From Candidatus Krumholzibacteriota bacterium (lineage in GTDB: Bacteria; Krumholzibacteriota; Krumholzibacteriia; Krumholzibacteriales; WJIX01), in assembly GCA_034520215.1 (NCBI GenBank), contig JAXHNR010000002.1:344642-408641 (forward strand): a stretch of 64,000 bases of DNA. Direction: 5' to 3'. Position numbers and translations under genes: made by a program. Each line of letters starts with the position of its first letter. Position 1 is the stretch's first letter. Positions 13,380-42,847 of this stretch are shown one piece after another. The notes under the pieces are model-generated. The model was not told the origin of the DNA, did no database searches, and saw only the letters and a list, made by a program, of their open reading frames with translations.

Positions 13380-13381
13380 TT

Positions 13382-14674: not shown

Positions 14675-14678
14675 GCCA

Positions 14679-18136: not shown

Positions 18137-18836
18137 CAAATTTATCGAATTATTTAATAAGCTCGAGACAACTCTAAGACAAAAAGTAAACTGGAATAAT
18201 CATAAGTCTTTCTATCAATTAGTAAATGTGGCTGCTAAAAAGTATTCCGTAGTTCATAGAAATCGGGATATTCTGAAAGATTTTGGTAATCTTAGGAACG
18301 CTATTGTTCATGATACTAAGTATCCCAAGAAGATTCTAGCCGATCCGCGGCGTGAGACTTTGGATAGTTTAGAAAATGTATTTGAAGCAATCACCAACCC
18401 TAAAAAAGTTATTCCAAAGTTTCAGAAAGATATCAAAGTATTTTCCCTAGAAGAAAAACTTACTAAGGTTTTAAAATATATGGGCAAAAACGATTTCTCG
18501 CAGGTTGTTGTATATAACAATGAGCATTACCAAACATTGTCTTCTGAGGCTATTGTAGGATGGTTAAGAAGCGCCATCGGTGTTGGAATTGCTGATCTGG
18601 AAGGTTCTAAAGTTGAGAATTCCCTAATATTCGAAGACGAAAAAACATGCGAATATTTGTCTCGAAACGAACCAATTGATTCTGCCTTTGAACTATTTGA
18701 AAAGGCGATTCAAAGAAACATACCACGATTGCAAGCCATCCTCGTGTCAGAGTCGGGTAAGTCTGATCAAAAACCTTTTGGCCTTATTACTCCATGGGAT
18801 CTGCTCAGTATAAATGGAGAAGATACTAATGAATAG
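18123..18836 (+). CDS. hypothetical protein with HEPN-like Rx4H motif and C-terminal CBS-like segment, embedded between helicase and PglZ
   Basis: LRNAIVHD contains the R-x4-H HEPN signature. C-terminal KPFGLITPWDLLS resembles a CBS motif. Overlaps both flanking genes. Confidence 0.3.
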   Translation: MRSGDKFIELFNKLETTLRQKVNWNNHKSFYQLVNVAAKKYSVVHRNRDILKDFGNLRNAIVHDTKYPKKILADPRRETLDSLENVFEAITNPKKVIPKFQKDIKVFSLEEKLTKVLKYMGKNDFSQVVVYNNEHYQTLSSEAIVGWLRSAIGVGIADLEGSKVENSLIFEDEKTCEYLSRNEPIDSAFELFEKAIQRNIPRLQAILVSESGKSDQKPFGLITPWDLLSINGEDTNE

Positions 18837-20841
18837 TTGGCGAGGGCAGATTCTAAAGGAATTTACTCCTCGGGTTGCACGCCTGACGCTGGTTGCCGAC
18901 CCGGATGGGCTTTTACTGGAGGAAGGTATTTTGAAGGGGATTCGCGAACGTGGCTTCGAACTAATCCTTTTCGAGGATCATGTAGCATTTCGCTACGCTT
19001 ACGAATCTAAATTCCGTTCTCGCTGGGATCATGGTGAACACACTGATCTGGTGGTCGTATTGAGATCGCCCTCAAGCGACCTTGATTCTCTTCCCTATGA
19101 TCTTCTGCAGGCAGGGCGAAAACTGTCTTTTAATCTAGGAGAGCTGTTTCCCAATCTAAGTTACCCGGTGATTGCCGCGTTGGACGCGCAAGATCTTGAT
19201 GCTCTTTTTCTGGCTCAGCTACAGTATATGCCTGGTAACATGGGTGATAATGCGACAAAAGAATTTGTGCTGCGTCATGTATTCGAGATTGCCCCCGAAC
19301 TTATAAAACAGCCATCCGATCTTCTGCGGGTTTTGCTGCGCCGTCACTACCGGAGACAGCGGATACCTGCCATGCTTGATCAGCGTTTTATCCAGGTGTT
19401 AAGACAGAATGGTCTATTTAAAGATTGGCAGCTCGACAAAATTGTTTCCGACCGTGAAGTTTTCTTTGCTTTTCTGCAAGAGCGCTGGCCGGCTTTCCTG
19501 GATTGCATGGCTGACCGGGGAAAACAACCAAAGACGGGAAATGAAGGAAAAGGTGATTACGGACTCCAATACTCAGGCCCCCTAGATATTCCCTTCGACC
19601 ATGACGATATTCGGGTTTATATTGACAATTTGTTCATAGAGGGATTACTCCATTCTGTCTATCACAAAAAGGGTGATGAATTGAAGTCAACCTGGGCCGG
19701 AGTTGGCATCCAGACCGATGCAGAAGAAGATCATCAGTATAGACTGGACAGATTGATTGATATGATCCGTAACAATATTCCAACAGAGGATGCCAGGCAT
19801 ACAGATTGGTTCCGTTTCGGTTATAGCTATGCTGAAATTAGTGTACTCGAACATGAGATAAACAGCGGACTGTCGGGTGATGAAAAAGAGCGTATTGCTT
19901 CACTTCGTTTATCAGTTGATGAGGCATTTCGCGAGTGGGTTGAGGATCGGTTTGCAGGTCTACATAATCAGCCCCCCGTGCCACCGGCAATGATTCACCA
20001 CATCCCGAGGGTCCTGGCAAGGGAGATTGGTGACTCAAGTAAAAAGAAGGTCGCATTTCTGCTGGTGGATGGGTTAGCTCTTAATCAGTGGCTTGTCTTA
20101 CGTGATGTGCTCCAGTATCAAAGGAAAAAATTAGAATTCCGAGAAAGCGCTGTTTTCGCCTGGATTCCCACCGTGACATCAGTGTCACGGCAGGCTGCCT
20201 TTGCCGGTAAACCACCGATTTACTTTCCCTCGAGTATACATACCACGAATAAGGAACAATCCCTTTGGACTCAATTCTGGGCGGATCAAGGACTGACAGG
20301 CACTGCTGAAGCATACGCAAGGGGCATTGGGGATGGTGATATCGACAAGGTGCGTGAGATCCTATCGCGCCCGAAGATTCGTGTGGTAGGGCTTGTTATC
20401 GATAAGGTAGACAAAATTATGCACGGCATGGAACTGGGTGCGGCTGGTATGTTGAGCCAGGTTCGTCAGTGGGCTATGCAGGGTTTTATGTCTGATCTTA
20501 TTGACATTCTTCTTTGTCAGGGCTTTCAGGTTTTTTTAAGTTCAGATCATGGTAACATTGAGGCGCAGGGTTGTGGAAGGCCGGCTGAAGGTTCTGTTGC
20601 GGATATAAGGGGCGAGCGAATTCGCGTGTATCCGGATGATCTGTTGCGGGCATCGGTCAGGAAAGATTTTCCAGAAGCTATAGAATGGCCGCCGATTGGC
20701 CTGCCGGAGGACTATCGCGCCCTGCTGGCACCAGACCGAAAGGCATTCATTCGGAAAAACGAAACCACCGTCGGACACGGCGGAATTTCTATCGAAGAAC
20801 TGATAGTTCCTCTGGTTCAGATCTATAGGAGGAATAAATGA
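18814..20841 (+). CDS. pglZ: BREX PglZ alkaline-phosphatase-superfamily protein
   Basis: 675 aa. VAFLLVDGLALNQW and FLSSDHGNIEAQG (metal-binding D/H motifs of the PglZ/alkaline phosphatase fold). Confidence 0.7.
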   Translation: MEKILMNSWRGQILKEFTPRVARLTLVADPDGLLLEEGILKGIRERGFELILFEDHVAFRYAYESKFRSRWDHGEHTDLVVVLRSPSSDLDSLPYDLLQAGRKLSFNLGELFPNLSYPVIAALDAQDLDALFLAQLQYMPGNMGDNATKEFVLRHVFEIAPELIKQPSDLLRVLLRRHYRRQRIPAMLDQRFIQVLRQNGLFKDWQLDKIVSDREVFFAFLQERWPAFLDCMADRGKQPKTGNEGKGDYGLQYSGPLDIPFDHDDIRVYIDNLFIEGLLHSVYHKKGDELKSTWAGVGIQTDAEEDHQYRLDRLIDMIRNNIPTEDARHTDWFRFGYSYAEISVLEHEINSGLSGDEKERIASLRLSVDEAFREWVEDRFAGLHNQPPVPPAMIHHIPRVLAREIGDSSKKKVAFLLVDGLALNQWLVLRDVLQYQRKKLEFRESAVFAWIPTVTSVSRQAAFAGKPPIYFPSSIHTTNKEQSLWTQFWADQGLTGTAEAYARGIGDGDIDKVREILSRPKIRVVGLVIDKVDKIMHGMELGAAGMLSQVRQWAMQGFMSDLIDILLCQGFQVFLSSDHGNIEAQGCGRPAEGSVADIRGERIRVYPDDLLRASVRKDFPEAIEWPPIGLPEDYRALLAPDRKAFIRKNETTVGHGGISIEELIVPLVQIYRRNK

Positions 20842-21620
20842 ACAATCGACTGAAACAAATTGGTGTTGATCGCTTTATTAGGTTAAAATGGCTTGAACGT
20901 ACATCTGATTTGCTGCTAGCCGGTAACTATGAGAATATAATCAAGAATGAACTTGAGCAATTACTAACAATTGATTTCCCTTCTTCGTCGGCGAGTAAAA
21001 GGGGTACAATTTCTAAGACAATCACAATCTTGTTAAAGACATGGGTCCGCGTACCTCGAGATATTTATTCTTTGAGAGACACTGGCCTCGAACTACTTCA
21101 ATCGGCGAAAAAAAATGACCGTTTAGCAATCCACTGGGGAATGATTATGGCTGCCTACCCTTTCTGGGGGGTTGTTGCCGGACAAACCGGGCGCTTGCTT
21201 CGTCTTCAGAAGAATGTAGCTGCAAGCCAAATACAGCGGCGTCTTAGGGAACAGTATGGAGAGCGAGAAACGGTTTCAAGAGCGGCGAGCCGTGTTATTC
21301 AGTCTTTTACCTATTGGCATGTTTTAAGTAACACTAAAAATAGAGGTATCTACAGTCAGGGACGCACATTTTCTATAAATGACCCTAAACTTATCTCCTG
21401 GCTTGTCGAGGTCTCCTTGCACGCACGTTCAAACGGTTCTGCTGTGATAAAGGACCTGCTTGATAGTACAATTTTTTTCCCCTTTCGATTTATACATATG
21501 TCAGCAGAGCAGTTAGTTTCCATATCATCTCGATTGGACATGATACGCCACGGACTGGATGAAAATTTAGTGATGTTGAGAGAAGAAGAACCAAACAAAG
21601 GAAGGAGAAAGAAACAATAA
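20838..21620 (+). CDS. hypothetical protein, possibly BrxA-like terminal gene of the BREX operon. Its 3' end runs into IS-derived sequence
   Basis: Position matches brxA in the type 3 gene order. The last residues (EEEPNKGRRKKQ) resemble the IstB C-terminal tail (EESNKGRRNKK), which points to an IS junction near 21580. Confidence 0.3.
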   Translation: MNNRLKQIGVDRFIRLKWLERTSDLLLAGNYENIIKNELEQLLTIDFPSSSASKRGTISKTITILLKTWVRVPRDIYSLRDTGLELLQSAKKNDRLAIHWGMIMAAYPFWGVVAGQTGRLLRLQKNVAASQIQRRLREQYGERETVSRAASRVIQSFTYWHVLSNTKNRGIYSQGRTFSINDPKLISWLVEVSLHARSNGSAVIKDLLDSTIFFPFRFIHMSAEQLVSISSRLDMIRHGLDENLVMLREEEPNKGRRKKQ

Positions 21621-21710
21621 ATTCGGTGGCAAAATAACCAGGGCTTTTTGCCTTAAAGAAACGGGAATTATAATTGTCGTTGAAAAGAAAAAATGCTTGA
21701 CGCCAGACAA

Positions 21711-21866
21711 GAATCGAACTGAAAGGAGAATCTGTGAGAAAAATGTACTAAAATCGTTGAATCAAACCTGCCACTTTGGTATGGTAACCTAGCAGGGAAT
21801 AGAAAGGGCTCAAAGGGTGGCAGTTTAAAACCGGAATGGGTGGCAACTTTCACCGGAATATACACA
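21711..21866 (+). repeat. IS21-family (type 2) right end, copy A: last 16 codons of istB plus about 110 bp terminus
   Basis: Near-identical to the reverse complement of 30222-30375 and to 56501-56602. Ends in ...caccggaatatacaca. Confidence 0.7.
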
Positions 21867-21941
21867 GGTTATTGTAGTCTAATTTAATTCTTCATTTAAT
21901 TACGTAACTGGAAATATTGACATTTTTTTAGGAATTGTATT

Positions 21942-23654
21942 TTGAAAAGTGATTGTAATATACTTGGCATTACATCTCCTATGAGTTGGGATTCGTCAGC
22001 TTGCATACTTAAGTCTGGCCAATTATTCGCTGCTGCAGAAGAAGAAAAAATTATACGTATAAAGCATGCTCCTCATCATGAACCAATTAATTCTATTGAT
22101 TTCTGCTTAAAAACATCAAATCTAAGCATGAAAGATATTGATTGTATAGCTACTGCATACATGAGTAATGAAGAGTATCTTGTCCGTAGATTTTTGTATG
22201 GTCTAAAGTATCTTTCAATAGACGATCTGTTAGCTCCATATTATTATTTTAAAAATAGTGAGCATTTCAAGAAACTTAATAGCTGGAATATTCTAAATAA
22301 GAATAAAAATAAGTTAATTAACGTTGAACATCATTTAGCACATTCATTTCACTCATTTTCTTCATCAGAATTTGAAAAGGCTTTAGTAATTTCATTAGAT
22401 GGTGAGGGCGAAACAGTATCTGGTTTGATTTCTGTTTTTTATAGAAGAGGATTTCAAATATTGCATAGAATTCCTTTGAAGTACAGTTTAGGGTCAATGT
22501 ATGAATCATTTACAGATTTTATAGGATATAGCTCGCATTATGATGAAGGCAAAGTAATGGGTCTTTCATCATATGGAACAGCAAATGATACGATTGTAAA
22601 TGATTTAGTTAAATCTGACCAGAAATGTACATTTAGAATTGCTACAAGGAAGATCAATAAATATTTAAAAAATAAGTTTGAACACTTAATTTTAAATGAA
22701 GGCTTTATTTGTGATGAATTACACAAAACATCAATGGCTAATTTTGCAGCAACAGCACAGAATATATATGAGGTAATCTTATTGTCGATGGCCGAGTATT
22801 GGATTTTAAAAACAAAAATTTCAAACGTTTGTCTTGCGGGAGGATGTTCACTAAATTGCCTTGCAAATGGTAAGTTATTGCTAAATCCACAAGTAAGCTC
22901 CGTGTTTGTGCCCCCTGGTAGTAATGACGCTGGAACTTCAATTGGAGCAGGAGTTTATGCTTATTTTTTGAACTCAGACGAAATACCATATGTTGACCAT
23001 GAATCTGCTAATGGCCACATCTATTCGGAAAATGAAATATTGCAATGCTTGAATAAACACAACCTTAAATTTTCGAAATTTAGTAACACAATCGATTTTA
23101 TAGCACGAGTACTTGCAGATGGAAAGAATGTAGGATGGTTTCAAGGAGGTATTGAGTTTGGACCTAGAGCTTTAGGCTATAGATCGATTCTATCCTCCGC
23201 TGATACTAATTCAGGAAAAGATGAGCTTAACTATATTAAGGGCAGAGAGAAGTGGAGACCATTTGGTTGCATTATACTAGAAAACAAGATTGCAGAGTAT
23301 TTCGAAATAAATACAGAAAGATTGCCAGATCTAAGATACATGAATGTTGCATTGCCCGTTCGAAAGAATAAAGCTAAACAAATCCCTGCAGTTGTGCATG
23401 TTGATAATACGAGTAGGATTCAATCTGTTACAGAATCAGAAAAAGAATTAAATAATCTATTAAAAAAGTATTATGAAATTACAGGTATTCCTTTATTGAT
23501 AAATACTTCTTTTAACACAAGAGGGGAACCTATTGTAAATACTCCAAATGAGGCCATCGTAGCATTTAAAACTCTAAATTTGGATTATTTAATCATGAAT
23601 GATATTTTGGTTTCTAGACCAAACTGTAATGTTCTTGAAAATAAAGAGGTATAG
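21942..23654 (+). CDS. carbamoyltransferase (NodU/CmcH/TobZ family)
   Basis: N-terminal ILGI...WDSSACIL...AAEEEKIIRIKH (ASKHA-like carbamoyltransferase signature). 570 aa. About 30% GC. Confidence 0.7.
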   Translation: MKSDCNILGITSPMSWDSSACILKSGQLFAAAEEEKIIRIKHAPHHEPINSIDFCLKTSNLSMKDIDCIATAYMSNEEYLVRRFLYGLKYLSIDDLLAPYYYFKNSEHFKKLNSWNILNKNKNKLINVEHHLAHSFHSFSSSEFEKALVISLDGEGETVSGLISVFYRRGFQILHRIPLKYSLGSMYESFTDFIGYSSHYDEGKVMGLSSYGTANDTIVNDLVKSDQKCTFRIATRKINKYLKNKFEHLILNEGFICDELHKTSMANFAATAQNIYEVILLSMAEYWILKTKISNVCLAGGCSLNCLANGKLLLNPQVSSVFVPPGSNDAGTSIGAGVYAYFLNSDEIPYVDHESANGHIYSENEILQCLNKHNLKFSKFSNTIDFIARVLADGKNVGWFQGGIEFGPRALGYRSILSSADTNSGKDELNYIKGREKWRPFGCIILENKIAEYFEINTERLPDLRYMNVALPVRKNKAKQIPAVVHVDNTSRIQSVTESEKELNNLLKKYYEITGIPLLINTSFNTRGEPIVNTPNEAIVAFKTLNLDYLIMNDILVSRPNCNVLENKEV

Positions 23655-23657
23655 TTA

Positions 23658-24833
23658 ATGTGTAATCTTAATTATGAGGATTACCCTTGTTTAAATACTG
23701 GAATTCTGCGCTTTGACCGACTATGGCTATTTGAAATGCTTTTTCATTACTCATCATTTGGTACTATTGATTGGTATGCTAAAGACAAGATTAATGTGCT
23801 TGATATGGGATGTGGAACATGTGAATGTGCGGTAGCTGCAGCTCTTAAGTATAAGAATGTAACGATACATTGTGTAGATGTTAGTGAAAATATATTAGAG
23901 TATGGTAAAAAATTAGCAGAAAAATATAATGTTGATAATATCAGGTTTTATGTGGGAAGTATATATACTATAAATCTCCCTATAAAATTTGATGCGGTTA
24001 TTTTAAGTGGCGTTATCCATCATTTAAAAAATCCATTAATCGGAATTAATAATATTTTAAAGCTATGTACTGATTCATGTGTTTTTGCATTTTATATATA
24101 TTCATTAAATGGACGTTTTGACGTTTTAAGGATCCAGAATGCTTTATCATTATTGTATCGAGAAAAGACTTTGTCTGAGCAAATCTCTATAGTTAGGGAT
24201 TTAATAAATGAAAATAACAAAGGATTAAGAACGGTTCTTTCCTGGAAACAAAACCATGGTGTTTTAAATGATTGCTATAGTGATAATTTTTTGGTTGATA
24301 TGTTTGCCCCAGGTTTTGAAAAACTATTTTCACTTCCTGAAGTGTTCAGATTTTTGGATAGGGCCAATTTGGATTTTGTAAGATTTGTTAACGAAACTTC
24401 TTGGGACCCAAACCTATATTTCAATAATCCTGAGCTTTTAAAGGAAATTGCTAATTTGTCGAAAAATGAAAAATATTTTCTTGTAGATAATCTTATTATG
24501 TCAGAAAATGGATATGAATTTATTGCAATAAAAAAAGGTAATAAAAGAAAATTTCATAAGAGACAACCATCAGAGTTAGGCAAAACAATAAAAAGATGTG
24601 CTTACGGAGAATTGAAATATGATCATAATAATAATGCTTATGTTAAACTCCTTTTTGATGATAGCATCATGTATATGAATCAGTTAGAAGCCACAATTTA
24701 TAAATTAGCATGTGAAGGAAGTACGATTAGAAAATGCATAATTAAGTGTAAAGTTAATAATATTTATTATGATGATGAATTTTATGAAACGTTACTTCGC
24801 TTAGAAAAGGAAGCAGTTATTGCGGTGAACTAA
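23658..24833 (+). CDS. class I SAM-dependent methyltransferase
   Basis: VLDMGCGTCECAVAAA (motif I) and AVILSGVIHH (motif II-like). Confidence 0.6.
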   Translation: MCNLNYEDYPCLNTGILRFDRLWLFEMLFHYSSFGTIDWYAKDKINVLDMGCGTCECAVAAALKYKNVTIHCVDVSENILEYGKKLAEKYNVDNIRFYVGSIYTINLPIKFDAVILSGVIHHLKNPLIGINNILKLCTDSCVFAFYIYSLNGRFDVLRIQNALSLLYREKTLSEQISIVRDLINENNKGLRTVLSWKQNHGVLNDCYSDNFLVDMFAPGFEKLFSLPEVFRFLDRANLDFVRFVNETSWDPNLYFNNPELLKEIANLSKNEKYFLVDNLIMSENGYEFIAIKKGNKRKFHKRQPSELGKTIKRCAYGELKYDHNNNAYVKLLFDDSIMYMNQLEATIYKLACEGSTIRKCIIKCKVNNIYYDDEFYETLLRLEKEAVIAVN

Positions 24834-24863
24834 GTACAAAATGGTTGTAAAATTTTAAAAAGA

Positions 24864-26120
24864 TTGAGCAGTTATCTGATGGTTAATCTTAACATTGTAA
24901 CCCCTACACATAATATTTCTTTTTTGCGCGAAACTTATGAATCTTTACTAAAGCAAACAGATAGAAAATGGAAATGGCTAATTGTTTTAAATAGTGGAGC
25001 GAAAAATCCAGAAATTCAAGATGATAGAGTCATTGTTGTTGAAGCTCCTACAGACATACCCAGAAATAATGTTGGTGCTATAAAAAATTATGCGTTTAAC
25101 CTTGTTGATGATGGAATTTCTTTGGAGTTAGATCATGATGATTTATTAACACCGAATGCTGTGAAATTGGTAAAGAAAGCTTTTGAGGATGATTGTGTTG
25201 GGATTGTGTATAGCGACTTTGCTGATTTTATTGATGAATCGTGGAGGCCACATCGTAATTCAGAGAAAAATGGTTGGTTATATCGACAAGAAGAGTTTTA
25301 TGGCAAAAAGTTTGATGTTTGTAGGGCATTTAAGTTAACAGCTCAATCAATTTCTCTCGTTTATTTTGCTCCTATCCATATTAGGGCATGGAAAACTAAA
25401 TTATATAAAGAAGTTGATGGACATAATCCTAATTTAATAGTAGCAGCTGATCATGAATTATTATGCAAGCTTTATCTTAAAGCAAAATTTAAATATATAC
25501 CAAAGTGTTTGTATTTGCACAGAGAGCATAGCAAGAACACTTATAAGCAGAATCTTGATATTATGAATGATATTACTTATTCAATATATGACGAGTATAT
25601 CGATTTATTAATTGATCGATGGTGCTCCATAAATAATTACAAAAAACTTGATATATGCTGCGGTAACTCACCGAATAAAGGGTATATCGGTATGGATATT
25701 TCTCAAGGAGATATAATTTCAGACTTAAATTGCAATTTTCCATTAAAAGACAATTCTGTAGCAGTTGTAAAAGCAACAGATGCTTTAGAACATTTAAAAG
25801 ACCCCGTGCATACTATGAATGAAATATATAGAATATTAATTCATGGAGGATGGCTAATATCTGACACTCCAAGTACGGATGGTCGAGGAGCGTTTCAAGA
25901 CCCCACACACTGTTCGTTTTGGAATTATAATTCATTTTTGTATTATACAAATAAAATGTTTTCTAAATATGTCCCTAACATTGATTGTCGTTTTCAATCT
26001 ATGCGGTTATATAATTACTTTCCAAGCGAGTATCATAAAAAATTAAATATACCATATATAAAATCACACCTAGTTGCTGTGAAAAACGGAATAAGATTAC
26101 CTGGTGAAATAAAAATTTAG
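24864..26120 (+). CDS. bifunctional family-2 glycosyltransferase / methyltransferase-like protein
   Basis: N-terminal VTPTHNISFLRETYESLLKQT (GT2). C-terminal LDICCGN...ALEHLKDPVHTMNEIYRILIHGGWL (Methyltransf_11-like). Confidence 0.55.
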   Translation: MSSYLMVNLNIVTPTHNISFLRETYESLLKQTDRKWKWLIVLNSGAKNPEIQDDRVIVVEAPTDIPRNNVGAIKNYAFNLVDDGISLELDHDDLLTPNAVKLVKKAFEDDCVGIVYSDFADFIDESWRPHRNSEKNGWLYRQEEFYGKKFDVCRAFKLTAQSISLVYFAPIHIRAWKTKLYKEVDGHNPNLIVAADHELLCKLYLKAKFKYIPKCLYLHREHSKNTYKQNLDIMNDITYSIYDEYIDLLIDRWCSINNYKKLDICCGNSPNKGYIGMDISQGDIISDLNCNFPLKDNSVAVVKATDALEHLKDPVHTMNEIYRILIHGGWLISDTPSTDGRGAFQDPTHCSFWNYNSFLYYTNKMFSKYVPNIDCRFQSMRLYNYFPSEYHKKLNIPYIKSHLVAVKNGIRLPGEIKI

Positions 26121-26121
26121 T

Positions 26122-27030
26122 ATGAATAGGAGATGCAAAATTAAAAATAAAATCATAGATTTGAAAAGTAATAAGAGAGCTATTATTTTAGCGCACTATT
26201 ATGTTTCTTCTGATGTACAAGATGTGGCTGATTTCGTAGGTGATTCTCTTGATTTGGCAATGAAAGCGAAAGATGTTGATGCTGATATAATAATAATGGC
26301 TGGCGTTAAGTTTATGGCAGAAATGGTAAAAATTCTTAATCCGACTAAAAAAGTACTTATACCAAGTTTAGATAGCTATTGTGAAATGGCTGATATGGTA
26401 GAAGCTGATTACTTAGAGGAAATTAAATCAAAAAATCCTGACGCTGCAGTTGTAGCATATGTCAATACATCAGCTGAGGTTAAAGCTATGAGTGATATAT
26501 GTTGTACATCTCGCAATGCAATTTCGATTGTAGAGTCATTAAAATCTAAAAATATTATTTTTGTACCAGATCAAAACATGGCTTCATATATTTCATTAAA
26601 TACTAATAAACATATTTCAGTGCCAAAAGGATTTTGCTATGTTCATAAAGAAGTTAGTGATTCTATAATTAATGTAAAACTAGCTAAATATCCTAAAGCT
26701 AAATTACTAGTGCACCCTGAATGCAATAGCAGTATCCAAGAACGTGCTGACTTTATAGGTTCTACAAGTGCTATGATATCATTTGTTAATAATACTAATA
26801 ATAACGAGTTTATTATAGCAACAGAAAACAATTATGTCCAATTTCTAAGCAAAATGTTTCCAAATAAGAAATTTACAGGAGCTGCACATTTGTGTAGAGG
26901 AATGAAAGAAAATAACATAGAAAACATTTTAAGTGCACTTCAAAATGTAGAACATGAAGTTATTGTTGATGATTCTATTGCTAATGATGCATTGACTTCA
27001 ATCGATAGGATGTTACAACATGAGAACTAA
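26122..27030 (+). CDS. nadA: quinolinate synthase (NadA) family protein
   Basis: AHYYVSSDVQDVADFVGDSLDLA, AGVKFMAEMVKIL, AYVNTSAEVKA, LVHPEC, IGSTSAM, ATENNY and LCRGM align with NadA signature blocks, including three candidate [4Fe-4S] Cys ligands. Confidence 0.75.
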   Translation: MNRRCKIKNKIIDLKSNKRAIILAHYYVSSDVQDVADFVGDSLDLAMKAKDVDADIIIMAGVKFMAEMVKILNPTKKVLIPSLDSYCEMADMVEADYLEEIKSKNPDAAVVAYVNTSAEVKAMSDICCTSRNAISIVESLKSKNIIFVPDQNMASYISLNTNKHISVPKGFCYVHKEVSDSIINVKLAKYPKAKLLVHPECNSSIQERADFIGSTSAMISFVNNTNNNEFIIATENNYVQFLSKMFPNKKFTGAAHLCRGMKENNIENILSALQNVEHEVIVDDSIANDALTSIDRMLQHEN

Positions 27031-28030
27031 TAGTCAAATTAATGATTTAAGATCCATGTTTTGCCCTTGCAAGATAAAGGATGAAGTAGAACTTGTAGAA
27101 ATTAACGAAGAATATGTTGAATATGATGGCTTTCAATTTATTGCAAAGCCTCTAAATGCAATTATTGAATTAACAAATAAATGCAATCTAAGATGTAAAC
27201 ATTGTTGTATTACTGAAAAAAGAAATGAAAAAGGGATTAACATCTCAATATTAAATGAACTAATAAATCTTGGCATTGAAAATTTTGAGCTCACTGGAGG
27301 AGAACCACTATTACATCCACATTTTAAGGAGATACTTCAATTATTAATTGAAAATAATTGCTATTTTCGTATCATGTCGAATGGATATTTTTGGAGTAAT
27401 GAACTCTACGAGCTATTGCAATGCTATCCCAACGTTGAAATATTCATATCAATAGACGGAAATGAAGAAATACATGACAGTATAAGAGGAAAAGGATCAT
27501 TTGTTAAAGCGATTAATACGATCCGAGAAGTTAAAATACATGATATAAAGCTGGGTATTTCAATGGCAGTTTCAAAAATTAATATAGATTGTATTGATTA
27601 TCTTTCACGATTAGTAAAAGAGCAAAACATAGATATTATAAAATTGATTCCTTTGAAGAGCAAAACATTAGACCCAGAATTTATAGACATGTACTCGTTA
27701 TCTTTTGAAGATTTCCAAAGAATTGATAGCGTAATTGAAAAAATAAACTTACCCAATAAGTTGGAATATAATGATTCACATAACTATAACTCAGACAAAA
27801 GGGTAGCTTTTTTTGGATGCAAGATGGGAGGAGCATTTTGCTCTATTGACAGTTATGGTTATCTTCAGAATTGTCCAGTAACTAGGGCTCCTGTAGGTCA
27901 AATTGATGATGGGAATTTCATTGAGTTATGGAATATCTTGCAAATAAATATTAGGAGAGAATTATATTCTAGCAAATGTTATGATTGCTATTTAAGAAAA
28001 TATTGTGCAGGCAATTGTAGCTATGCTTAG
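27020..28030 (+). CDS. radical SAM enzyme with C-terminal SPASM/twitch-type Cys cluster
   Basis: CNLRCKHCC matches CxxxCxxC. LTGGEPLL is present. C-terminal Cys residues (CPVT...CYDCYLRKYCAGNC). Confidence 0.7.
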   Translation: MRTNSQINDLRSMFCPCKIKDEVELVEINEEYVEYDGFQFIAKPLNAIIELTNKCNLRCKHCCITEKRNEKGINISILNELINLGIENFELTGGEPLLHPHFKEILQLLIENNCYFRIMSNGYFWSNELYELLQCYPNVEIFISIDGNEEIHDSIRGKGSFVKAINTIREVKIHDIKLGISMAVSKINIDCIDYLSRLVKEQNIDIIKLIPLKSKTLDPEFIDMYSLSFEDFQRIDSVIEKINLPNKLEYNDSHNYNSDKRVAFFGCKMGGAFCSIDSYGYLQNCPVTRAPVGQIDDGNFIELWNILQINIRRELYSSKCYDCYLRKYCAGNCSYA

Positions 28031-28784
28031 AGACGAATTCTATAAAAAAAATAAAATAATAGTTGTTGCTCACCCCGATGATGAAGCGATAGCTTGTGGT
28101 AACCTAATTTTAAAAACTCTGGAACAAGGTTTTTCTATTTGTGTTATAAGAGTTACTAAGGGGGCTCCTTATTATTTAAATAATAAGGAGAGGGAATTAG
28201 TTGTAAATATAAGAGAAAATGAGGCGAGTAAATTTGATAATTTATTTTATTCTTATTCTTACCACTCTGTAAATTTAAGTTTCATAGATCAGTATTTGAG
28301 TAGTAATGTCTCTCTATTGTATCATTCTTTAAAAAATATAGTAGTAAAGAATGTTATTACGAATTCAATAATAATTAGTCATCATCTTGAATTTGGACAT
28401 CCTGATCACGATCTTTTGTATTTTATTGTTAGAAAAATTTCAAAAGATCTTCGATTTAATATGTATTCATTTCCAATGTATGGTACTTACAATGGGAGAT
28501 TCTATTATGAATATTCCTATGAAAATTTAAATGATGTTGTTTTTAAACTTAATAATATTGATGTTTATCAAAAATCGCAGTTATTAAATATATTCAAATC
28601 ACAAAAAAGAATAATAGAACGGATAAATACATCTAAGGAAGTATTTATTCCAGTTGAAAAGCTAACAGGGGTCTGTTTTGATTTACCATACCCTAAAAAA
28701 TATTTAGTTTCAGAAAATATTCCTATCACACCTATCAAATTGTTGAATATCTGGATGTCTTGGGAACGGGAAAATGGTAATTAA
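28005..28784 (+). CDS. PIG-L/LmbE-family deacetylase
   Basis: IIVVAHPDDEAIACG (the AHPDDE zinc-binding motif of PIG-L N-acetylglucosaminyl deacetylases) and HPDH further downstream. Confidence 0.65.
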   Translation: MQAIVAMLRDEFYKKNKIIVVAHPDDEAIACGNLILKTLEQGFSICVIRVTKGAPYYLNNKERELVVNIRENEASKFDNLFYSYSYHSVNLSFIDQYLSSNVSLLYHSLKNIVVKNVITNSIIISHHLEFGHPDHDLLYFIVRKISKDLRFNMYSFPMYGTYNGRFYYEYSYENLNDVVFKLNNIDVYQKSQLLNIFKSQKRIIERINTSKEVFIPVEKLTGVCFDLPYPKKYLVSENIPITPIKLLNIWMSWERENGN

Positions 28785-29880
28785 AAAAATACTTTCTATT
28801 GGTTTTTTCCCACCTCGTAGAAGCGGAGCTGCAATTACTAATCATGAAATATGCAATAAGTTATCATTAAGCAATAAAGTAATTGCTCTTTCTCCGCTCT
28901 TAGAAGTGCATGCAAAAATGCCGGTAGACAAGTATTTTAAGACAAAAAAATATTCTTTAGTAAAATTAAAAAATAAATTGCCGCCTGCTTCAAAAAGGGT
29001 TTATCAAAATACAATTACAGAAATTGGGAAAAGGTTTTCACCTGAGATATTAAACTATATAAATTCATTTCAACCAGATATTGTATTTATTATGCATGAG
29101 TCAATATTATGGTATTTAGAGGGCTACTTATTAAAAATGAATGTACCTTTTTATTGCCTTTGTCATGGATCGCCTATAACTCAACTTTCAGACTATGGCA
29201 GTATTGAAAGAGATTATTTTTTAAACACATTATCTCAAATGAAAAAAGTATTTGTAATATCTAAATATTTAAGTGATTTGTTGAAATCATTCCATATACG
29301 TAGTTCACTTCCTTTTGGCGATGGATTAAACACAAATCTTTTCAATTCTTATAAAAGAAAACAAGTAAGTAGTCAAAAAAAGATTCAAATAATGCATGTA
29401 TCAAATTTTAAAGAAGGGAAACAAATAAATGAATTCTATCGACTTGCTTCAATTATGAAGGATAGAAAAAATCTAAAATTTTTAGCAATTGGTAATCCTC
29501 ATCTTAATGAAGCTGTTATTGACATAGAAAACAATGTAGTAAATATCGCATGGTTACCTTATGAACAAACCTTAGATTTTATGAATAAGGCGGACATTTT
29601 GGTTGTAACGTCGCAAAGAGAAGGTTTATCAAGAATAATTCGTGAATCACAGCTTTTAGGTAAAGTCCCTATTGCACCGGATTTAGAGGTATTTAGAGAA
29701 TCAATTGAAAATGAGGCGACTGGTTTTTTATATGATGTAGATGACGAAAGGAGCTTGAGTATTACTTTGCAGCGTATTATTGCTAAATTTGAAATGGTGA
29801 AATATCTAATTTGTGCAAAGAGAAAATACTTTTTTCAACAATATGGTATCCCTAAACTTATAAACGAAGATATTTGGTAA
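28774..29880 (+). CDS. family-4 (GT-B) glycosyltransferase
   Basis: C-terminal VVTSQREGLSRIIRESQLLGKVPIAPD...E (E-x7-E region of GT4). Confidence 0.6.
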   Translation: MVIKKILSIGFFPPRRSGAAITNHEICNKLSLSNKVIALSPLLEVHAKMPVDKYFKTKKYSLVKLKNKLPPASKRVYQNTITEIGKRFSPEILNYINSFQPDIVFIMHESILWYLEGYLLKMNVPFYCLCHGSPITQLSDYGSIERDYFLNTLSQMKKVFVISKYLSDLLKSFHIRSSLPFGDGLNTNLFNSYKRKQVSSQKKIQIMHVSNFKEGKQINEFYRLASIMKDRKNLKFLAIGNPHLNEAVIDIENNVVNIAWLPYEQTLDFMNKADILVVTSQREGLSRIIRESQLLGKVPIAPDLEVFRESIENEATGFLYDVDDERSLSITLQRIIAKFEMVKYLICAKRKYFFQQYGIPKLINEDIW

Positions 29881-30221
29881 TAAAGATTGTGCCAACAATT
29901 TTTCGTTTTATAATTTTTTAAGCATTCTTCTTTTACGGTAGCCTAAGTATATCATTCTGATTATATCAAGCCAGCTTACTTTTAACCCTACTCAAAACCT
30001 GGTTTGTAGTAGTGACCTTTCAACATTAAACTCATTCATGTGACCTTCCCCCGTTTAATAATCTACCACGCTCAAAGCTAATCTTTCTTTATTCATTCAT
30101 TTGTCTAGAAGCAAACTCACTTGGGGGCATGCTCCCAAGTGAACTGTGCGGCCTGAATGTATTGTGCTCGCACCTTCAATCCTCGATTTTTTGTCGGGTA
30201 TCAGCAAGGTTTAAGGAAAAG

Positions 30222-30375
30222 TGTGTATTCCGGTGAAAGTTGCCACTCATTCCGGTTTTAACCTGCCACCCCTGAGGTACTTTCTATTCCCTGCTGTTTA
30301 ACCATACCAAAGTGGCAGGTTTGAATCAACGATTTGAGTACATTTTTCTCACAGATTCTCCTTTCAGTTCGATTC
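30222..30375 (-). repeat. IS21-family (type 2) right end, copy B (inverted relative to copy A)
   Basis: Reverse complement matches 21711-21866. The terminus faces 30222. Confidence 0.7.
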
Positions 30376-30742
30376 TTTTAGCGCTGTGGACTACCCGGTC
30401 ACAGATAGCATCTGCGATGGTATGATCACCGATTATCTTGTGCCAGTCTTTAACTGGCAGTTGAGATACGAAGATTGATGATTTCAGGCCATGCCTGTCT
30501 TCAAGGATTTCCAGAAGGGTGAGGCGGTTGGGGGCGTCGAGGGGCTCGAGGCCGAAGTCGTCGATTATAAAGACATCAAGCTTTCTTATTTTGATCAGCT
30601 CTTTCAGATAAGTTCCATCTGCTTTTGAGAGCTTAAGATTAGCGAACAGCTTTGAGCAGGGGAAGTAGCCGACCTTGTGGCCATAGACGCATGCCTGATG
30701 CCCCAGTGCTGAATGGGCTTCCCCTGGTTTTCTAGACACCAA
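30326..30742 (-). pseudogene. istB: IS21-family IstB helper ATPase, C-terminal fragment (type 2)
   Basis: LDVFIIDDFGLEPL (Walker B region) and ...WHKIIGDHTIADAICDRVVHSAKRIELKGESVRK (IstB C-terminus). The N-terminal half with Walker A is missing. Confidence 0.7.
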
Positions 30743-30774
30743 TTAGGTTACAATATAACCTAAAGGAGGAGTCC

Positions 30775-31365
30775 ATGACGCAGCAGAAGCAAGACTGGAT
30801 CAGGTCCAACGAGAGGGCGATGTGGTATTTTGGCGGTGTACCGGCGGCGATAGTACCTGACAACTTAAAAAGCGGTGTTACTCTCAGCAGCAGGTATGAA
30901 CCGGGCATTAATGATCTCCTCGATGATTTTGCCGGGTATTACAGGACGGTGATACTTCCTGCCAGAGCTGGTGCTCCCCGGGATAAGGCACTGGCTGAGA
31001 ACGGGGTAAAGCTGGTTTATCAGAGAATATATGCGCCTCTCAGAAACGAGATATTCCACTCTGTTGAGGAGATAAACGAAGCGATCCTTCCACTTCTGGG
31101 GCGTCATAATGATAAGCCATTCACGCGGCTTGGAGTATCCAGAAGGGAGCTGTTTGAGGAGATCGAGAAGAGCGAGCTTAAAGATCTTCCTGTAGAGAGA
31201 TATCCTCTCAAGTACTTCAAGAAGCAAAGGCATTCGGGGTTTAATGTTCATATCTCAGAAGCGATCCGGGCAGGTGACAAAGAGGCACTCACCCGGGTTG
31301 CCAGATATATGATGAGGAGCCCCGTAGTAATCTCACGACTAATCTATCACAGAGAAGCACAGTAG
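30775..31365 (+). pseudogene. istA: IS21-family transposase IstA, C-terminal fragment (type 2)
   Basis: WYFGGVPAAIVPDNLKSGV...DKALAENGVKLVYQRIYAPL is the conserved post-DDE IstA region. The matching N-terminus sits far away at 3050-3268 on the opposite strand. Confidence 0.7.
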
Positions 31366-31800: not shown

Positions 31801-32108
31801 CGCTAACCTGAAGCGGGGCGTATTAAGCGTAAGTTGTGTTACCTACAGAGGATGTTAGGTGGGGTGTGGTCTGATTTGGCCTTATCTCCCTACACCACAT
31901 CCAAACTTGCTTTATGGGCCCGGAACATGGCTGAAGAAAATTTCTCCATCCCTGAAATCAGAATAATGGCGACGAAGCACAGTATAAATGGGGCGCAAAA
32001 CCCCCTTGTTCGCACTTCCCCCGTTGACAGAAAAAATCGAATTTCTTATAATTATGGATAAATGATAAATAAATATTAGAATTACAAACTAAAACATATA
32101 AAAAACTC

Positions 32109-32939
32109 ATGGTTAATTGCTTATTTAAGTCATGGAAAGATATTATTCAGAATTCTATAGTAGAATTTTATAATGATATAGGAGATTCAGGCTTTATTGT
32201 AGGGAGTTTTCATGACGCGGAACTATTCATTGACCCAAAAGATATTGATGTGGCAATTATTTTTGATTACCTTGACACTGAAATGTTGCGGGTAGCAATA
32301 GAAAGAGCGGAGCTGTTATCACAAAAACTAAGCAATAATTTTGATTCTATAAATTTTATTCCCGAGTTTAAACAAGGACCAATTAAGCTAGCAAACAATA
32401 ATAAACAAAAACAAATCCATTTCTTCTTTTTTGAATATTCGGCAATCCAAAGGAAAAAAGGACATCCTTTCTTGTGTAGTTGGTTAATGAATAATTCTAG
32501 ACTTTTTGGCAAAGAATTGTCACAGATCATTAATGTAAGAGGTATTGATAGAAAAGTCCTAATTAATGATATTAATAATACCATTACTTCAATTAGTCAA
32601 GGAAAGATATGGTATTGGGAGTTTTATCAAAAAGAAAATAAGAACAAATTGAAAATGAAAATGGAATGGCAAAATGTCAATTCTAGAAATCAATATTTAG
32701 AACTTATTAGATATTCTAGACATATAATTCGTTCCTTTTTATTATATCTAACTGAAAATGACTCAAGTAAATCACAACTACTTATATCTGAATCCAATAG
32801 GATATTAGAATTGGAATTGTACAATAGAACTCATAATGAAATTGTGGAAAGTAAAAGATTTACATTTGATAAGGAAGTCTTTCATATTTTAAATTTTTTA
32901 CATACGGCAACTAACTATTTATCAAAACTTAAGGCTTAA
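32109..32939 (+). CDS. Pol-beta-superfamily nucleotidyltransferase-domain protein
   Basis: GSFHDAELFIDPKDIDVAII matches hG[GS]x9-13DxD. Confidence 0.45.
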   Translation: MVNCLFKSWKDIIQNSIVEFYNDIGDSGFIVGSFHDAELFIDPKDIDVAIIFDYLDTEMLRVAIERAELLSQKLSNNFDSINFIPEFKQGPIKLANNNKQKQIHFFFFEYSAIQRKKGHPFLCSWLMNNSRLFGKELSQIINVRGIDRKVLINDINNTITSISQGKIWYWEFYQKENKNKLKMKMEWQNVNSRNQYLELIRYSRHIIRSFLLYLTENDSSKSQLLISESNRILELELYNRTHNEIVESKRFTFDKEVFHILNFLHTATNYLSKLKA

Positions 32940-32941
32940 AC

Positions 32942-34564
32942 ATGATCGAATACGATATAATTATCCCAACCCATAAAAATTTTGATGAAAAAAAAGGATC
33001 AATTTTACCAACACTTTTAGGAATCTCTAATTTTATTGTTCAACCAATCAATGTATTCATAATAAGTAATGGCGATGATGAGAAAACAAAGAACCGTTTG
33101 CACGAAACATGTTCAATGTTTAAAAATGTAGTATTAATTGAAGAAAAAGTAGCAAATCGGGCTAAAGCAAGAAATATTGGTATTGGAAAAAGCAAATCAG
33201 ATTTTGTAATGTTTATGGATGATGATATAATAGTATCTCCTGAAGCAATTAATTTTTTCGTCAAAAATATATCTATGCATTCATTTCTATGTGGTGCTTG
33301 GAGACGCTATATTCCTCAAAATACTAAAGTCTCTACTATTAATGAATATTTAAAGCAGCAAAATTATCAGGATATAGATAATCTAGCTTCTGATGAACCA
33401 TCGTATAAACCCTCTCCTAAGGGAGAATATAATGGTTTACTACAACAATCGACATTTATATCGTGTTTTGGTGGAGCATCAAGAAAATGTATTAATGAAG
33501 TAGGTGGTTATGATGAAGAGTTTGAGGGATGGGGTCTTGAGGATACAGATCTAATGAGAAAATTAATACAAACTGTCAATTTTATTAGTATGGCTCCATC
33601 TTTGGTCTGGCATTATGATCATCTTGTTCAACCATATAGATGGAAAGAGCATTGGGGAATTAACTGGAATACTTATATTAAAAATTCAAAGGATAGAGGT
33701 TTTCTCATGCTTCGTGCCCTTTTTAATAAAAAAGAAGCTACAGTTAATGATGAAGAAGTATTGATCTCACCAAAAAATGAAAAAGCATATTCATTAATTC
33801 CAAAACAACTCAAGCCAATTTATCAAGCTCATTTAAAAGAGTGCGTTGATATATATTCTTCTGATTATTATTGTGTTGGTGTTATTCTATATGGTTCAGC
33901 ATTATATAGCGAAGAGCCCAGTGATTTTGATATTACAAAAATTGTATTTAAAGGGAAACAAGAGTTTAATTATTTTAATAGATCGATTATCCCAATTGAT
34001 GAACATATTATTGGTCTTTTTTCTATTAAACATTTTATTGATCATCCTTTTTATGATCCAAATAGATGGTTCATTATTGCGGGCAAATTTGCAGAAGGAT
34101 TATACCTGTGGCAAAATGTTAATATTAAAGAAAAAATTTCATATTGGATAGAAGAATCTATTAAGAGATTTTGGTTACATCTATTGTCCTACCATCTTGG
34201 TAGAGTTTTAAAATTGATAAATGAAGAACACTATATTGATAGATCAAAAGCATATTGGCACTTTTCTCTAATCCTTTGTTTCTCGAAATCAATATTCCCA
34301 ATAAAATATAGGTATCCATATTCCAATGACATAGACATTCAATCAATGCTAATAAACTTTGAGAATGAAATCATGCCATTAAAGTTATACGAAAGAAAAA
34401 AAGAGACATTAATAATTCTACAAAAATACATATTCGATATCGTAGCTAAATACGATAATAATCAAATATATCCCATATACTATCAGGACAGTTTAATTTC
34501 AATAAATGAGATTAAAAAAATCACTAAATCAGAAATACAATACAAATTAGCTCCATTAGGTTAA
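32942..34564 (+). CDS. family-2 glycosyltransferase fused to a nucleotidyltransferase-like C-terminal domain
   Basis: N-terminal IIIPTHKNF...GIGKSKSDFVMFMDDDIIVSPEA (GT2 with DDD). C-terminal VILYGSALYSEEPSDFDI (GS...DxD). Confidence 0.5.
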   Translation: MIEYDIIIPTHKNFDEKKGSILPTLLGISNFIVQPINVFIISNGDDEKTKNRLHETCSMFKNVVLIEEKVANRAKARNIGIGKSKSDFVMFMDDDIIVSPEAINFFVKNISMHSFLCGAWRRYIPQNTKVSTINEYLKQQNYQDIDNLASDEPSYKPSPKGEYNGLLQQSTFISCFGGASRKCINEVGGYDEEFEGWGLEDTDLMRKLIQTVNFISMAPSLVWHYDHLVQPYRWKEHWGINWNTYIKNSKDRGFLMLRALFNKKEATVNDEEVLISPKNEKAYSLIPKQLKPIYQAHLKECVDIYSSDYYCVGVILYGSALYSEEPSDFDITKIVFKGKQEFNYFNRSIIPIDEHIIGLFSIKHFIDHPFYDPNRWFIIAGKFAEGLYLWQNVNIKEKISYWIEESIKRFWLHLLSYHLGRVLKLINEEHYIDRSKAYWHFSLILCFSKSIFPIKYRYPYSNDIDIQSMLINFENEIMPLKLYERKKETLIILQKYIFDIVAKYDNNQIYPIYYQDSLISINEIKKITKSEIQYKLAPLG

Positions 34565-34766
34565 AAAGCTTGCAAAGAATGAGCAAAACATTGCTGCTCG
34601 TTTTACTTCTCGGTTTGAGCTGGGAAACAGATAATTCTTTCTCCCGATCTTATGGAAAGCTTTCAGTGTCTAGCGACAATTATTTTTCCCGTCTGGCGAC
34701 AATTAGAATTCCCGGTTATTAAGGGAATTGATAGACTGTCCAAGTCATGAGAATAAGGAGGCTTGG

Positions 34767-36143: not shown

Positions 36144-36243
36144 CACTCAGCGGCAATGAACCGGAGCCTGCCACTGATGTGAACATAGCAGATGTGGATC
36201 TCAGTGAGTATGACGCTCTTCTCGGTGAAAAGGAGGTGGCGAC

Positions 36244-37092: not shown

Positions 37093-37102
37093 CGCTAGAC
37101 AC

Positions 37103-40230: not shown

Positions 40231-40265
40231 AATGAAGGTGGATTCTTAAAATAGGGAGGCGAATT

Positions 40266-42834: not shown

Positions 42835-42847
42835 AAAGAGAAGAAAA

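Follow-up and report, generated by a model that had tools for sequence, protein, structure and literature searches.

A low-GC operon with a NadA, radical SAM, PIG-L and GT4 core lies among truncated insertion sequence ends in a Krumholzibacteriota genome

The DNA analysed here, referred to as the window, is a stretch of 64,000 nt from a Candidatus Krumholzibacteriota bacterium metagenome-assembled genome (MAG; assembly GCA_034520215.1, contig JAXHNR010000002.1, positions 344,642 to 408,641), and all coordinates below are those of the window. The window contains an operon of seven co-directional open reading frames (ORFs) that is bracketed by two inverted, truncated right ends of an insertion sequence (IS) of the IS21 family (Table 1). 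We call this element IS-Y; its right ends form arm A to the left of the operon, arm B to the right of the operon, and a third copy, copy C, further downstream. The last four genes of the operon encode the quinolinate synthase NadA, a radical S-adenosylmethionine (SAM) enzyme with a SPASM-type Cys motif, an LmbE/PIG-L de-N-acetylase and a family 4 glycosyltransferase (GT4). These four genes are shown to be a core that is kept in order in an unrelated low-GC groundwater lineage, in which the tailoring genes differ. The operon lies in an IS graveyard, where the two borders are separately truncated IS-Y relics and the bracket is probably not a transposable unit, and the four-gene core is proposed to be a pathway.

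The spacings between the seven ORFs are 3, 30, 1, -11, -26 and -11 nt, and the operon is intact and translationally coupled. The original prediction, which was made from the letters and the translated ORFs, had described a tightly packed operon of a carbamoyltransferase, a methyltransferase, a fusion of a family 2 glycosyltransferase (GT2) with a methyltransferase, a NadA paralog, a radical SAM/SPASM enzyme, a PIG-L deacetylase and a GT4; the spacings bear out the packing, and all seven domain assignments were recovered with Pfam and NCBIfam, with the SPASM Cys motif read by eye. Promoter-like sites between 21500 and 30400 do not exceed the frequency found in shuffled sequence, and no terminators were found there. 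The first gene encodes an O-carbamoyltransferase for which GdmN, TobZ and NovN are equally close matches in the Protein Data Bank (PDB; E ~1e-68), and its best non-self homolog among 5.8 billion proteins is 37% identical. The operon synteny is not shared at the two carbamoyltransferase homologs examined (35-37% identical; contigs L005 and L006). The second gene encodes a class I SAM methyltransferase whose nearest PDB entries are the protein lysine methyltransferase 8hkr (1.3e-13) and plant N-methyltransferases. The third encodes the GT2-methyltransferase fusion, which has a weak PDB match to chondroitin synthase.

The first gene of the core encodes NadA, which scores 374.4 bits against the NCBIfam model NF006878 (cut-off 294) and 313.7 bits against TIGR00550 (cut-off 262.9). 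In an alignment of 20 sequences the protein keeps 55 of 55 invariant columns, including the [4Fe-4S] cysteines C87, C172 and C258, and of the 94 columns with a conservation of 85% or more, it departs from the consensus in 8, by conservative changes only. The nearest PDB match is 4hhe (3.6e-77), and in a set of 5.8 billion proteins no non-self relative comes closer than 50% identity. Judged by its sequence, the gene product is predicted to be a working quinolinate synthase. The next gene encodes the radical SAM enzyme, with the CX3CX2C motif at C55/C59/C62, further cysteines at C267...C274...C285 and a C-terminal C320-X2-C-X5-C-X3-C motif; the Pfam SPASM model was not reported at E<=1e-3, and the SPASM Cys pattern was read by eye. 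An AlphaFold2 model of the protein (predicted local distance difference test score 81) gave SkfB, SuiB, CteB, anSME and BlsE as the best Foldseek matches, and its fold matches SPASM/twitch enzymes. The best full-length non-self matches among 5.8 billion proteins are ~30% identical, and all three operon proteins that were searched in this way (NadA, the carbamoyltransferase and the radical SAM enzyme) are near-orphans among billions of sequences. A role for the radical SAM enzyme in the maturation of a ribosomally made, post-translationally modified peptide (RiPP) was considered and set aside, since the protein has no N-terminal domain of the size of a RiPP recognition element and, judged by the ORF lists and gene spacings, there is no apparent room for a precursor ORF within the operon. 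The PIG-L gene product contains both the AHPDDE and HPDH motifs, and its profile matches diacetylchitobiose deacetylase (1e-7) and BshB1 (1.4e-3). A perfect 26-nt palindrome, CTCCTTATTATTTAAATAATAAGGAG, is found within the coding sequence of this gene at 28165-28190. The final gene encodes the GT4, in which the EX7E motif is present. A profile built from two sequences returned BshA for all of its top five PDB matches (E 4e-16 to 1.5e-13), and the next match was PglA (2.6e-7).

When 1.84 billion representatives were searched exhaustively with HMMER, a single real relative of the radical SAM enzyme emerged (P0361, 40% identity, E 8e-69), and the next matches are 27-31% identical. This relative is encoded on contigs from groundwater metagenomes (L014-L016, 34% GC), which carry genes for NadA (302 aa), the radical SAM enzyme (330 aa), PIG-L (242 aa) and GT4 (383 aa), with the order and common strand unchanged from the window. 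Identities between the window and groundwater proteins are 42% for NadA, 38-41% for the radical SAM enzyme, 28-32% for PIG-L and 31% for GT4. In the groundwater lineage the block is preceded by a gene for a carbamoyl-phosphate-synthase-like ATP-grasp ligase and followed by a second GT4, and its GC content matches that of its own contig. The groundwater NadA is also above the NadA cut-off (350 bits), and in a neighbor-joining tree of 120 NadA proteins the two NadAs of the core are sisters on long branches. A scan of JGI metagenome contigs added one 1.4-kb contig of the groundwater lineage, and no further copies of the core were found in IMG/VR. The NadA homologs P0049 (Nanoarchaeota) and P0024 share motifs with the NadAs of the core, though neither has radical SAM, PIG-L or GT4 neighbors. 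Two other NadA homologs were rejected as sources of synteny, P0002 being a duplicated-NadA gene call and P0004 lying in a normal nadABC operon. No paper that pairs "quinolinate synthase" with SPASM was found in the literature library searched. On a further contig of a Logan assembly (L020, 2841-6109), a NadA that is 49% identical to that of the window directly follows Wzy_C, GT2 and YjbQ genes, without radical SAM, PIG-L or GT4 genes; because this NadA adjoins Wzy_C and GT2, the position of NadA beside glycan genes is not unique to the core.

Table 1. Genes of the operon and insertion sequence features of the window
Feature	Coordinates	Strand	Basis or remarks
IS-X', right-end remnant of a second IS21-family element, 126 nt	21584-21709	+	Self-blastn
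Arm A, IS-Y right-end stump	21709-21864	+	Repeat search, blastn, three-copy alignment
O-carbamoyltransferase, TobZ/NodU/GdmN type, 570 aa	21942-23654	+	Pfam Carbam_trans_N and Carbam_trans_C
Class I SAM methyltransferase, 391 aa, ~240-aa C-terminal extension	23658-24833	+	Pfam Methyltransf_31/25/12/11
GT2-SAM methyltransferase fusion, 418 aa	24864-26120	+	Pfam Glycos_transf_2 (residues 11-158), Methyltransf_11 (291-332)
Quinolinate synthase NadA, 302 aa, core gene 1	26122-27030	+	NCBIfam NadA equivalog
Radical SAM enzyme with C-terminal SPASM-type Cys motif, 336 aa, core gene 2	27020-28030	+	Pfam Radical_SAM
LmbE/PIG-L metal-dependent de-N-acetylase, 259 aa, core gene 3	28005-28784	+	Pfam PIG-L 7.8e-16
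GT4 retaining glycosyltransferase, BshA-like, 368 aa, core gene 4	28774-29880	+	Pfam Glycos_transf_1, Glyco_transf_4
IS3-family transposase 3' remnant	~30090-30221 (left limit approximate)	-	Conceptual translation, NCBIfam
Arm B, IS-Y right end and 5'-truncated istB (138 aa)	30222-30742	-	Pfam, NCBIfam, blastn
IS21 istA fragment (C-terminal half), then Y2_Tnp-like transposase fragment	30775-31365	+	NCBIfam, Pfam
276-aa ORF, no database match	32109-32939	+	Nucleotidyltransferase-like motif by eye only; GC3 0.23
540-aa GT2	32942-34564	+	Pfam GT2 families; GC3 0.20
IS-X, intact IS21-family element, the only one in the window	34666-37101	+	TG...CA ends, IstA 471 aa, IstB 282 aa
Copy C, 103-nt IS-Y right-end stump	56500-56602	+	blastn, alignment

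The enzyme set had been likened both to bacillithiol or mycothiol chemistry and to aminoglycoside chemistry. For the former, the resemblance of the GT4 and PIG-L proteins to BshA and BshB is upheld by the GT4 profile, and their membership of those families is contradicted by the curated cut-offs. As in the bacillithiol (BshA-BshB-BshC) and mycothiol (MshA-MshB-MshC-MshD) pathways, a GT4 and an LmbE/PIG-L enzyme are adjacent, the nearest solved relative of the GT4 is BshA, and the N-methyltransferase-like, carbamoyltransferase and, in the groundwater lineage, ATP-grasp neighbors are in keeping with a logic in which N-acetylglucosamine (GlcNAc) is passed to a small acceptor, its acetyl group is removed and the amine is decorated anew. 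The GT4, however, reaches 38.6 bits against the BshA equivalog TIGR03999 (cut-off 273.7), where the groundwater GT4 reaches 67.5, and PIG-L reaches 24.4 bits against the BshB equivalog TIGR04001 (cut-off 182.5). No BshC or MshC cysteine ligase is encoded among the seven operon genes and the flanking ORFs scanned with Pfam and NCBIfam, and the conserved partners here are NadA and a SPASM radical SAM enzyme; to our knowledge, no low-molecular-weight thiol pathway contains these two. The aminoglycoside comparison was not supported. The operon does share with 2-deoxystreptamine tailoring (BtrM/BtrD/BtrN, TobZ) the classes of GT4, LmbE-type deacetylase, radical SAM enzyme and O-carbamoyltransferase, but no domain of a 2-deoxy-scyllo-inosose synthase or an aminotransferase is present in the operon genes, and the carbamoyltransferase is equally near to GdmN and NovN. 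The radical SAM enzyme is likewise not BtrN-like: it is a full SPASM protein nearest to SkfB, SuiB and anSME, and BtrN is absent from its PDB sequence matches and from the top 50 Foldseek matches. Compared with the housekeeping NadA of nadA-nadB-nadC operons, the NadA of the window likewise passes the equivalog cut-off, keeps the cysteines and invariant columns, and is 49-50% identical to NadAs of Clostridia in nadABC operons (L003). It differs in lying between the GT2-methyltransferase fusion and the radical SAM gene with gene overlaps and no nadB or nadC nearby, and in that the NadA-radical SAM-LmbE-GT4 context recurs in a second lineage.

We tentatively suggest that the operon may direct the transfer of GlcNAc to a small acceptor, the removal of its acetyl group and then the decoration of the amine and hydroxyls. 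In such a scheme, the BshA-like GT4 would move GlcNAc from UDP-GlcNAc onto the small acceptor and the LmbE enzyme would strip the acetyl group. The N-methyltransferase-like methyltransferase, the TobZ-type carbamoyltransferase and the GT2-methyltransferase fusion would then decorate the freed amine and the hydroxyls in the operon of the window, through N-methylation, carbamoylation and GT2 extension, and in the groundwater lineage their place would be taken by the ATP-grasp ligase, through acylation, and by the second GT4. The least certain step concerns NadA and the radical SAM enzyme, which would make or remodel an acid aglycone or acceptor. That the core is a pathway, so far undescribed, to a small molecule with glucosamine in it (such as a low-molecular-weight thiol-, cofactor- or antibiotic-like glycoside), with an aglycone derived from NadA chemistry and reshaped by the radical SAM enzyme, is a speculative reading that we regard as unlikely as it stands; the aglycone would be a derivative of quinolinate or of a C4-dicarboxylate. 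The narrower claim that NadA and the radical SAM enzyme make or remodel the aglycone is, taken by itself, likewise speculative and unlikely.

The operon might instead be a fragment of an ordinary surface-polysaccharide or glycoconjugate locus of the O-antigen, capsule or S-layer type, with NadA as a passenger that serves NAD synthesis, an explanation that is possible though on the unlikely side. More GT2 genes occur just downstream of the operon, one of the two examined contigs with carbamoyltransferase homologs (L006) carries a glycan cluster with radical SAM/SPASM genes while the other does not, and both the canonical sequence of NadA and the L020 NadA (49% identity) beside Wzy_C and GT2 would fit. 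Against this, a Pfam scan of ORFs in the low-GC stretches turned up no gene for an initiating phosphoglycosyltransferase, a flippase, an ABC exporter or a polymerase and no sugar-nucleotide gene, and the GT4 profile is nearest to BshA, a small-acceptor enzyme. The order of the core at 30-42% identity in a second lineage is also hard to explain for a passenger.

A further explanation, which we consider improbable, would separate the core into two halves. NadA and the SPASM radical SAM enzyme would form an oxygen- and flavin-independent route to quinolinate, in which the radical SAM enzyme stands in for NadB and forms iminoaspartate by acting as a dehydrogenase, and the two would be merely co-transcribed with an unrelated GT4 and LmbE pair. 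Both NadAs are canonical, no nadB or nadC adjoins them in either lineage, and the structural neighbors of the radical SAM enzyme include anSME, a SPASM enzyme of the dehydrogenase type. The bshA and bshB genes of Bacillus also sit in mixed housekeeping operons. This route is purely inferential, however, we know of no radical SAM enzyme that replaces NadB, and the gene overlaps tie together all four genes rather than two.

Returning to the proposal of the four-gene core as a pathway, several points weigh against it. Both NadAs of the core look fully canonical and may simply make quinolinate for NAD, and their sister grouping could be long-branch attraction, given that they share only 42% raw identity with one another and reach 49-50% and 45% with housekeeping NadAs. 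The core is present in two lineages only, so that selection on gene order rests on one comparison. The GT4 and PIG-L proteins lie far under the BshA and BshB cut-offs, and neither an acceptor nor a product, a transporter or a sugar-nucleotide gene could be identified.

The bracketed DNA (21865-30221) has a GC content of 30.5%, and GC at third codon positions (GC3) is 0.19-0.24 in all seven genes. The genes of the neighboring bacteriophage exclusion (BREX) locus at 5458-20841 have 44.3% GC; an expected contrast of roughly 30% inside the bracket and 50% in the BREX locus was thus correct for the operon and too high for BREX. The bracket does not delimit the low-GC island. Beyond the right border, low-GC DNA resumes at 32051-34665 (GC 0.288, GC3 0.20-0.23), and the same class is found at 192-2119 (GC3 0.23-0.24), while every other gene of the window has a GC3 of 0.27-0.56. 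The simplest reading is that of one AT-rich island split by higher-GC insertions. These would be the IS-flanked BREX block at ~2.9-21.9 kb, IS debris at 30.1-32.05 kb and IS-X at 34.7-37.1 kb, and the island would include the operon, the segment at 32.05-34.67 kb and perhaps that at 0-2.9 kb. The island was probably acquired horizontally by the Krumholzibacteriota MAG. The operon DNA is compositionally foreign to its flanks in a comparison confined to the window (mean 39% GC), and this limited scope is a point against the interpretation given here. Other Krumholzibacteriota MAGs are reported to have ~70% GC (PMC10936416), a figure that is inapplicable to a window averaging 39% GC. At the left edge of the window, a low-GC gene encodes another radical SAM/SPASM protein (438 aa, GC3 0.24) and is directly followed by a 51-aa ORF (803-2284; also L004, 3370-4851). 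These two may be a RiPP maturase-precursor pair.

The borders of the operon had been described as near-identical IS21 right ends that face each other across about 8.3 kb, with a third copy downstream. The geometry and the third copy were both recovered: a repeat search identified an inverted repeat of 157 nt with arms at 21709-21865 and 30221-30377, which are 90% complementary and 8355 nt apart, and the two ends face each other over 8.36 kb. The likeness of the arms had been overstated. By blastn of the window against itself, arms A and B are related at 90.4% identity (E 4e-56), whereas copy C is 100% identical to arm B over 103 nt and 87.5% identical to arm A. Three occurrences of the terminal 25-mer GTGGCAACTTTCACCGGAATAYACA were counted in the window, with 0.00 occurrences expected (none in 100 shuffles). 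The terminus of arm A reads ...GGAATATACA, and in every copy the homology ends after ...CACCGGAATA(C/T)ACA, i.e. ...GGAATA(Y)ACA. This places the tips at 21864 (A, plus strand), 30222 (B, minus strand) and 56602 (C, plus strand), with tips A and B facing each other. At seven loci in other MAGs that carry the 25-mer, the homology breaks at exactly the same base, and the flanks differ among these loci and the three sites in the window. The IS-Y end has two direct subterminal repeats, GGTGGCA..TT...CCGGAAT, and a terminal CA; a terminal CA and repeated subterminal motifs are typical of IS21-family ends. Arm A is a stump of 155 nt that contains the final 13 codons of istB (RIELKGESVRKMY, followed by the stop codon) and the non-coding terminus. 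Arm B is 521 nt in length, and its istB fragment (30326-30742, minus strand) has its stop codon 104 nt from the tip. The fragment matches Pfam IstB_IS21 at positions 111-233 of 238 (E 2.9e-31) and NCBIfam IS21_help_AAA at positions 108-230 of 232 (E 3.8e-36), and the DNA of arm B is 67-79% identical to annotated istB genes on plasmids. Because the IstB C-terminus lies upstream of the end in arm B, and given the CA end and the subterminal repeats, the copies are identified from their sequence as genuine IS21-family right termini. IS-Y shares with the IS21 family the IstB C-terminus before the end, the terminal CA, the two subterminal repeats and the occurrence of the same end at varied sites, but is represented here by right ends only, and no left end or cognate istA was found anywhere in the 64-kb window. 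The seven contigs with the exact 25-nt terminus (L007-L013) belong to MAGs of Latescibacterota, Neomarinimicrobiota, Armatimonadota and others, and several of the termini are near contig ends. Such a location is as expected for an active, assembly-breaking IS21-family element that has spread across phyla.

On the outer side of arm A lies the remnant IS-X', which is 75-76% identical to the right end of IS-X at 36975-37101 and to 56108-56234. IS-X itself differs from IS-Y and is a separate IS21-family member, and the self-comparison identified remnants of its end at 56107-56335, 59905-59931 and 2941-3010. IS-X' finishes with ...GCCAGACA at 21709, immediately abutting arm A, and it provides the final ~12 codons of the BREX gene brxA, for which the BrxA model stops at residue 250 of 260. 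The conserved part of BrxA stops exactly at the start of this IS21-type remnant (~21584-21587). Because IS-X' ends exactly where arm A begins, we suggest that an IS-X-like element inserted into the istB of the IS-Y copy of arm A, and that a later deletion took all sequence to the left of IS-X', with its endpoint at around residue 250 of 260 of BrxA. This deletion would be how the complete BREX locus came to adjoin the operon. On the right side, the minus strand of the 130 nt that separate the AT-rich tail of the operon from tip B encodes ...CEHNTFRPHSSLGSMPPSEFA..., which matches NCBIfam transpos_IS3 at positions 336-368 of 369 (E 1.1e-6), and the GC content climbs to 0.49 there. By this translation, arm B sits inside an IS3 remnant and not in the low-GC DNA itself. 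Beyond tip B, a block of IS debris extends over 1.8 kb from 30222 to ~32050 with a GC content of 0.48. It includes the istA fragment, which matches NCBIfam transpos_IS21 at positions 157-293 of 294, and the Y2_Tnp-like fragment, identified by Pfam. A short palindrome, TTAGGTTACAATATAACCTAA, is found at 30743-30765, at the junction of the truncated minus-strand istB and the plus-strand istA fragment, and is followed by a strong Shine-Dalgarno sequence and the ATG that opens the istA fragment. An IS256 transposase tail is located directly to the right of IS-X. No clean target-site duplication surrounds IS-X, the flanks of which read CTTTCAG and CTTCACC, and because the right flank is the IS256 fragment, these flanks give no evidence on original contiguity. 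With at least seven further IS fragments in the window, it is common here for an IS end to lie beside anything.

The most probable history of the bracket, in our view, is that of a by-product: repeated IS insertion in and around an acquired AT-rich island would have been followed by IS-mediated deletions. The original prediction had called the arrangement composite-transposon-like, and this description was not sustained. Neither arm contains a transposase gene (arm A has 13 istB codons and arm B a 138-aa IstB fragment), and no IS-Y left end lies outside the arms, A being cut at 21709 by IS-X' and B at 30742 by IS debris. Because both arms have lost their outer ends, a target-site duplication is impossible in the present sequence. 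The limits of the cargo also do not match the inner IS ends, with an IS3 remnant inside the bracket and DNA of the same GC3 class at 32051-34665. A composite transposon is thus disfavored by the 10% divergence of A and B, the identity of B and C, and the lack of a transposase, of outer ends and of a testable target duplication. Its decayed form, in which two full inverted IS-Y copies with their right ends inward, as in Tn10, once mobilized the operon and later lost their outer halves, is quite doubtful, though its possibility counts against the by-product account. It does fit the geometry, since the two ends are of the same type and inverted with their bodies outward, and the enclosed DNA is compositionally foreign and IS-Y-type ends are mobile across phyla. 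On the other hand, the arms are 10% divergent whereas arm B has an exact match in the unrelated copy C, the IS3 remnant intervenes between the operon and arm B, and the low-GC class with glycan genes carries on outside the bracket, in a window littered with other IS fragments. Composite transposons of the Tn10/Tn5 type likewise have two inverted inner ends of the same IS type around compositionally distinct cargo. The arms here, in contrast, are stumps of 155 and 521 nt without transposase or outer ends and are 90% identical as opposed to >=97%, an IS3 remnant is found inside the would-be cargo, and cargo-like DNA is also found outside. A scan of genome contigs for IS-free relatives at this locus, with the carbamoyltransferase as query, found no relative (the MAG is not among the GTDB representatives), and no plasmid with a near match to the cargo was found.

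It is highly improbable that the arrangement is an assembly artifact in which a low-GC segment was mis-joined at the IS repeats. The GC content does shift exactly at the repeat-bearing junctions, B and C have 103 identical bases in common, and contigs from an independent Logan assembly of the same run (SRR26473340) terminate within the repeats. One of these contigs (L001) corresponds to window positions 21720-30251 at 100% identity and breaks inside both repeats; the unique variant of arm A is therein continuous with the left end of the cargo (from 21720). The Logan contig of the BREX side runs into arm A, to ~21738 by coordinate arithmetic. Moreover, the exact repeats are only 41-103 nt, below typical read length, and no alternative path leaves this set of flanks. 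Continuity is confirmed for the interior of the cargo, and the joins across the 41-103-nt exact repeats are probably correct.

The remainder of the window contains several other modules. The BREX locus to the left of the operon (4947-21620) is complete and type-3-like, and encodes BrxF, BrxC/PglY, PglXI, BrxHI, PglZ and BrxA. Within it are further defense genes, encoding a PDC-S02 (DUF1016/YhcG) nuclease at 9198-10364 and a HEC-01A/B pair (AAA_21 and DUF4276) at 13340-15341. To the right of IS-X, in the region 39190-48054, another radical SAM/SPASM gene (39190-40230), the second of its kind, precedes an NMT1-type ABC transporter, an O-methyltransferase (42848-43828) and three ORFs of 652, 532 and 210 aa without a Pfam match. 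Gene products at 49858-55708, a 734-aa protein with a transglycosylase domain and a 648-aa ATPase of the FtsK/SpoIIIE type, suggest that the window may contain a conjugative or integrative element in its right half. A restriction-modification-like block on the minus strand (56655-59635, GC 32-36%) encodes an N6_N4 DNA methylase, a DUF6996/DUF6997/DUF7226 protein and a Dam-class methylase, and is flanked by copy C of IS-Y and the 27-nt IS-X end remnant at 59905-59931.

The transposon part of this result is ordinary: nested debris of IS21, IS3, IS256 and IS91-like elements can mimic a composite transposon and bring a complete BREX locus beside unrelated cargo. The order of the core, by comparison, is kept across ~60-70% sequence divergence, and the core matches no described pathway. 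If its four genes cooperate, they would add a further branch to the scheme of GlcNAc transfer and de-N-acetylation that is known from bacillithiol, mycothiol and the aminoglycosides. Were the product indeed a glucosamine-containing molecule with an aglycone from NadA chemistry, a quinolinate synthase would for the first time have a role in a biosynthesis other than that of NAD.

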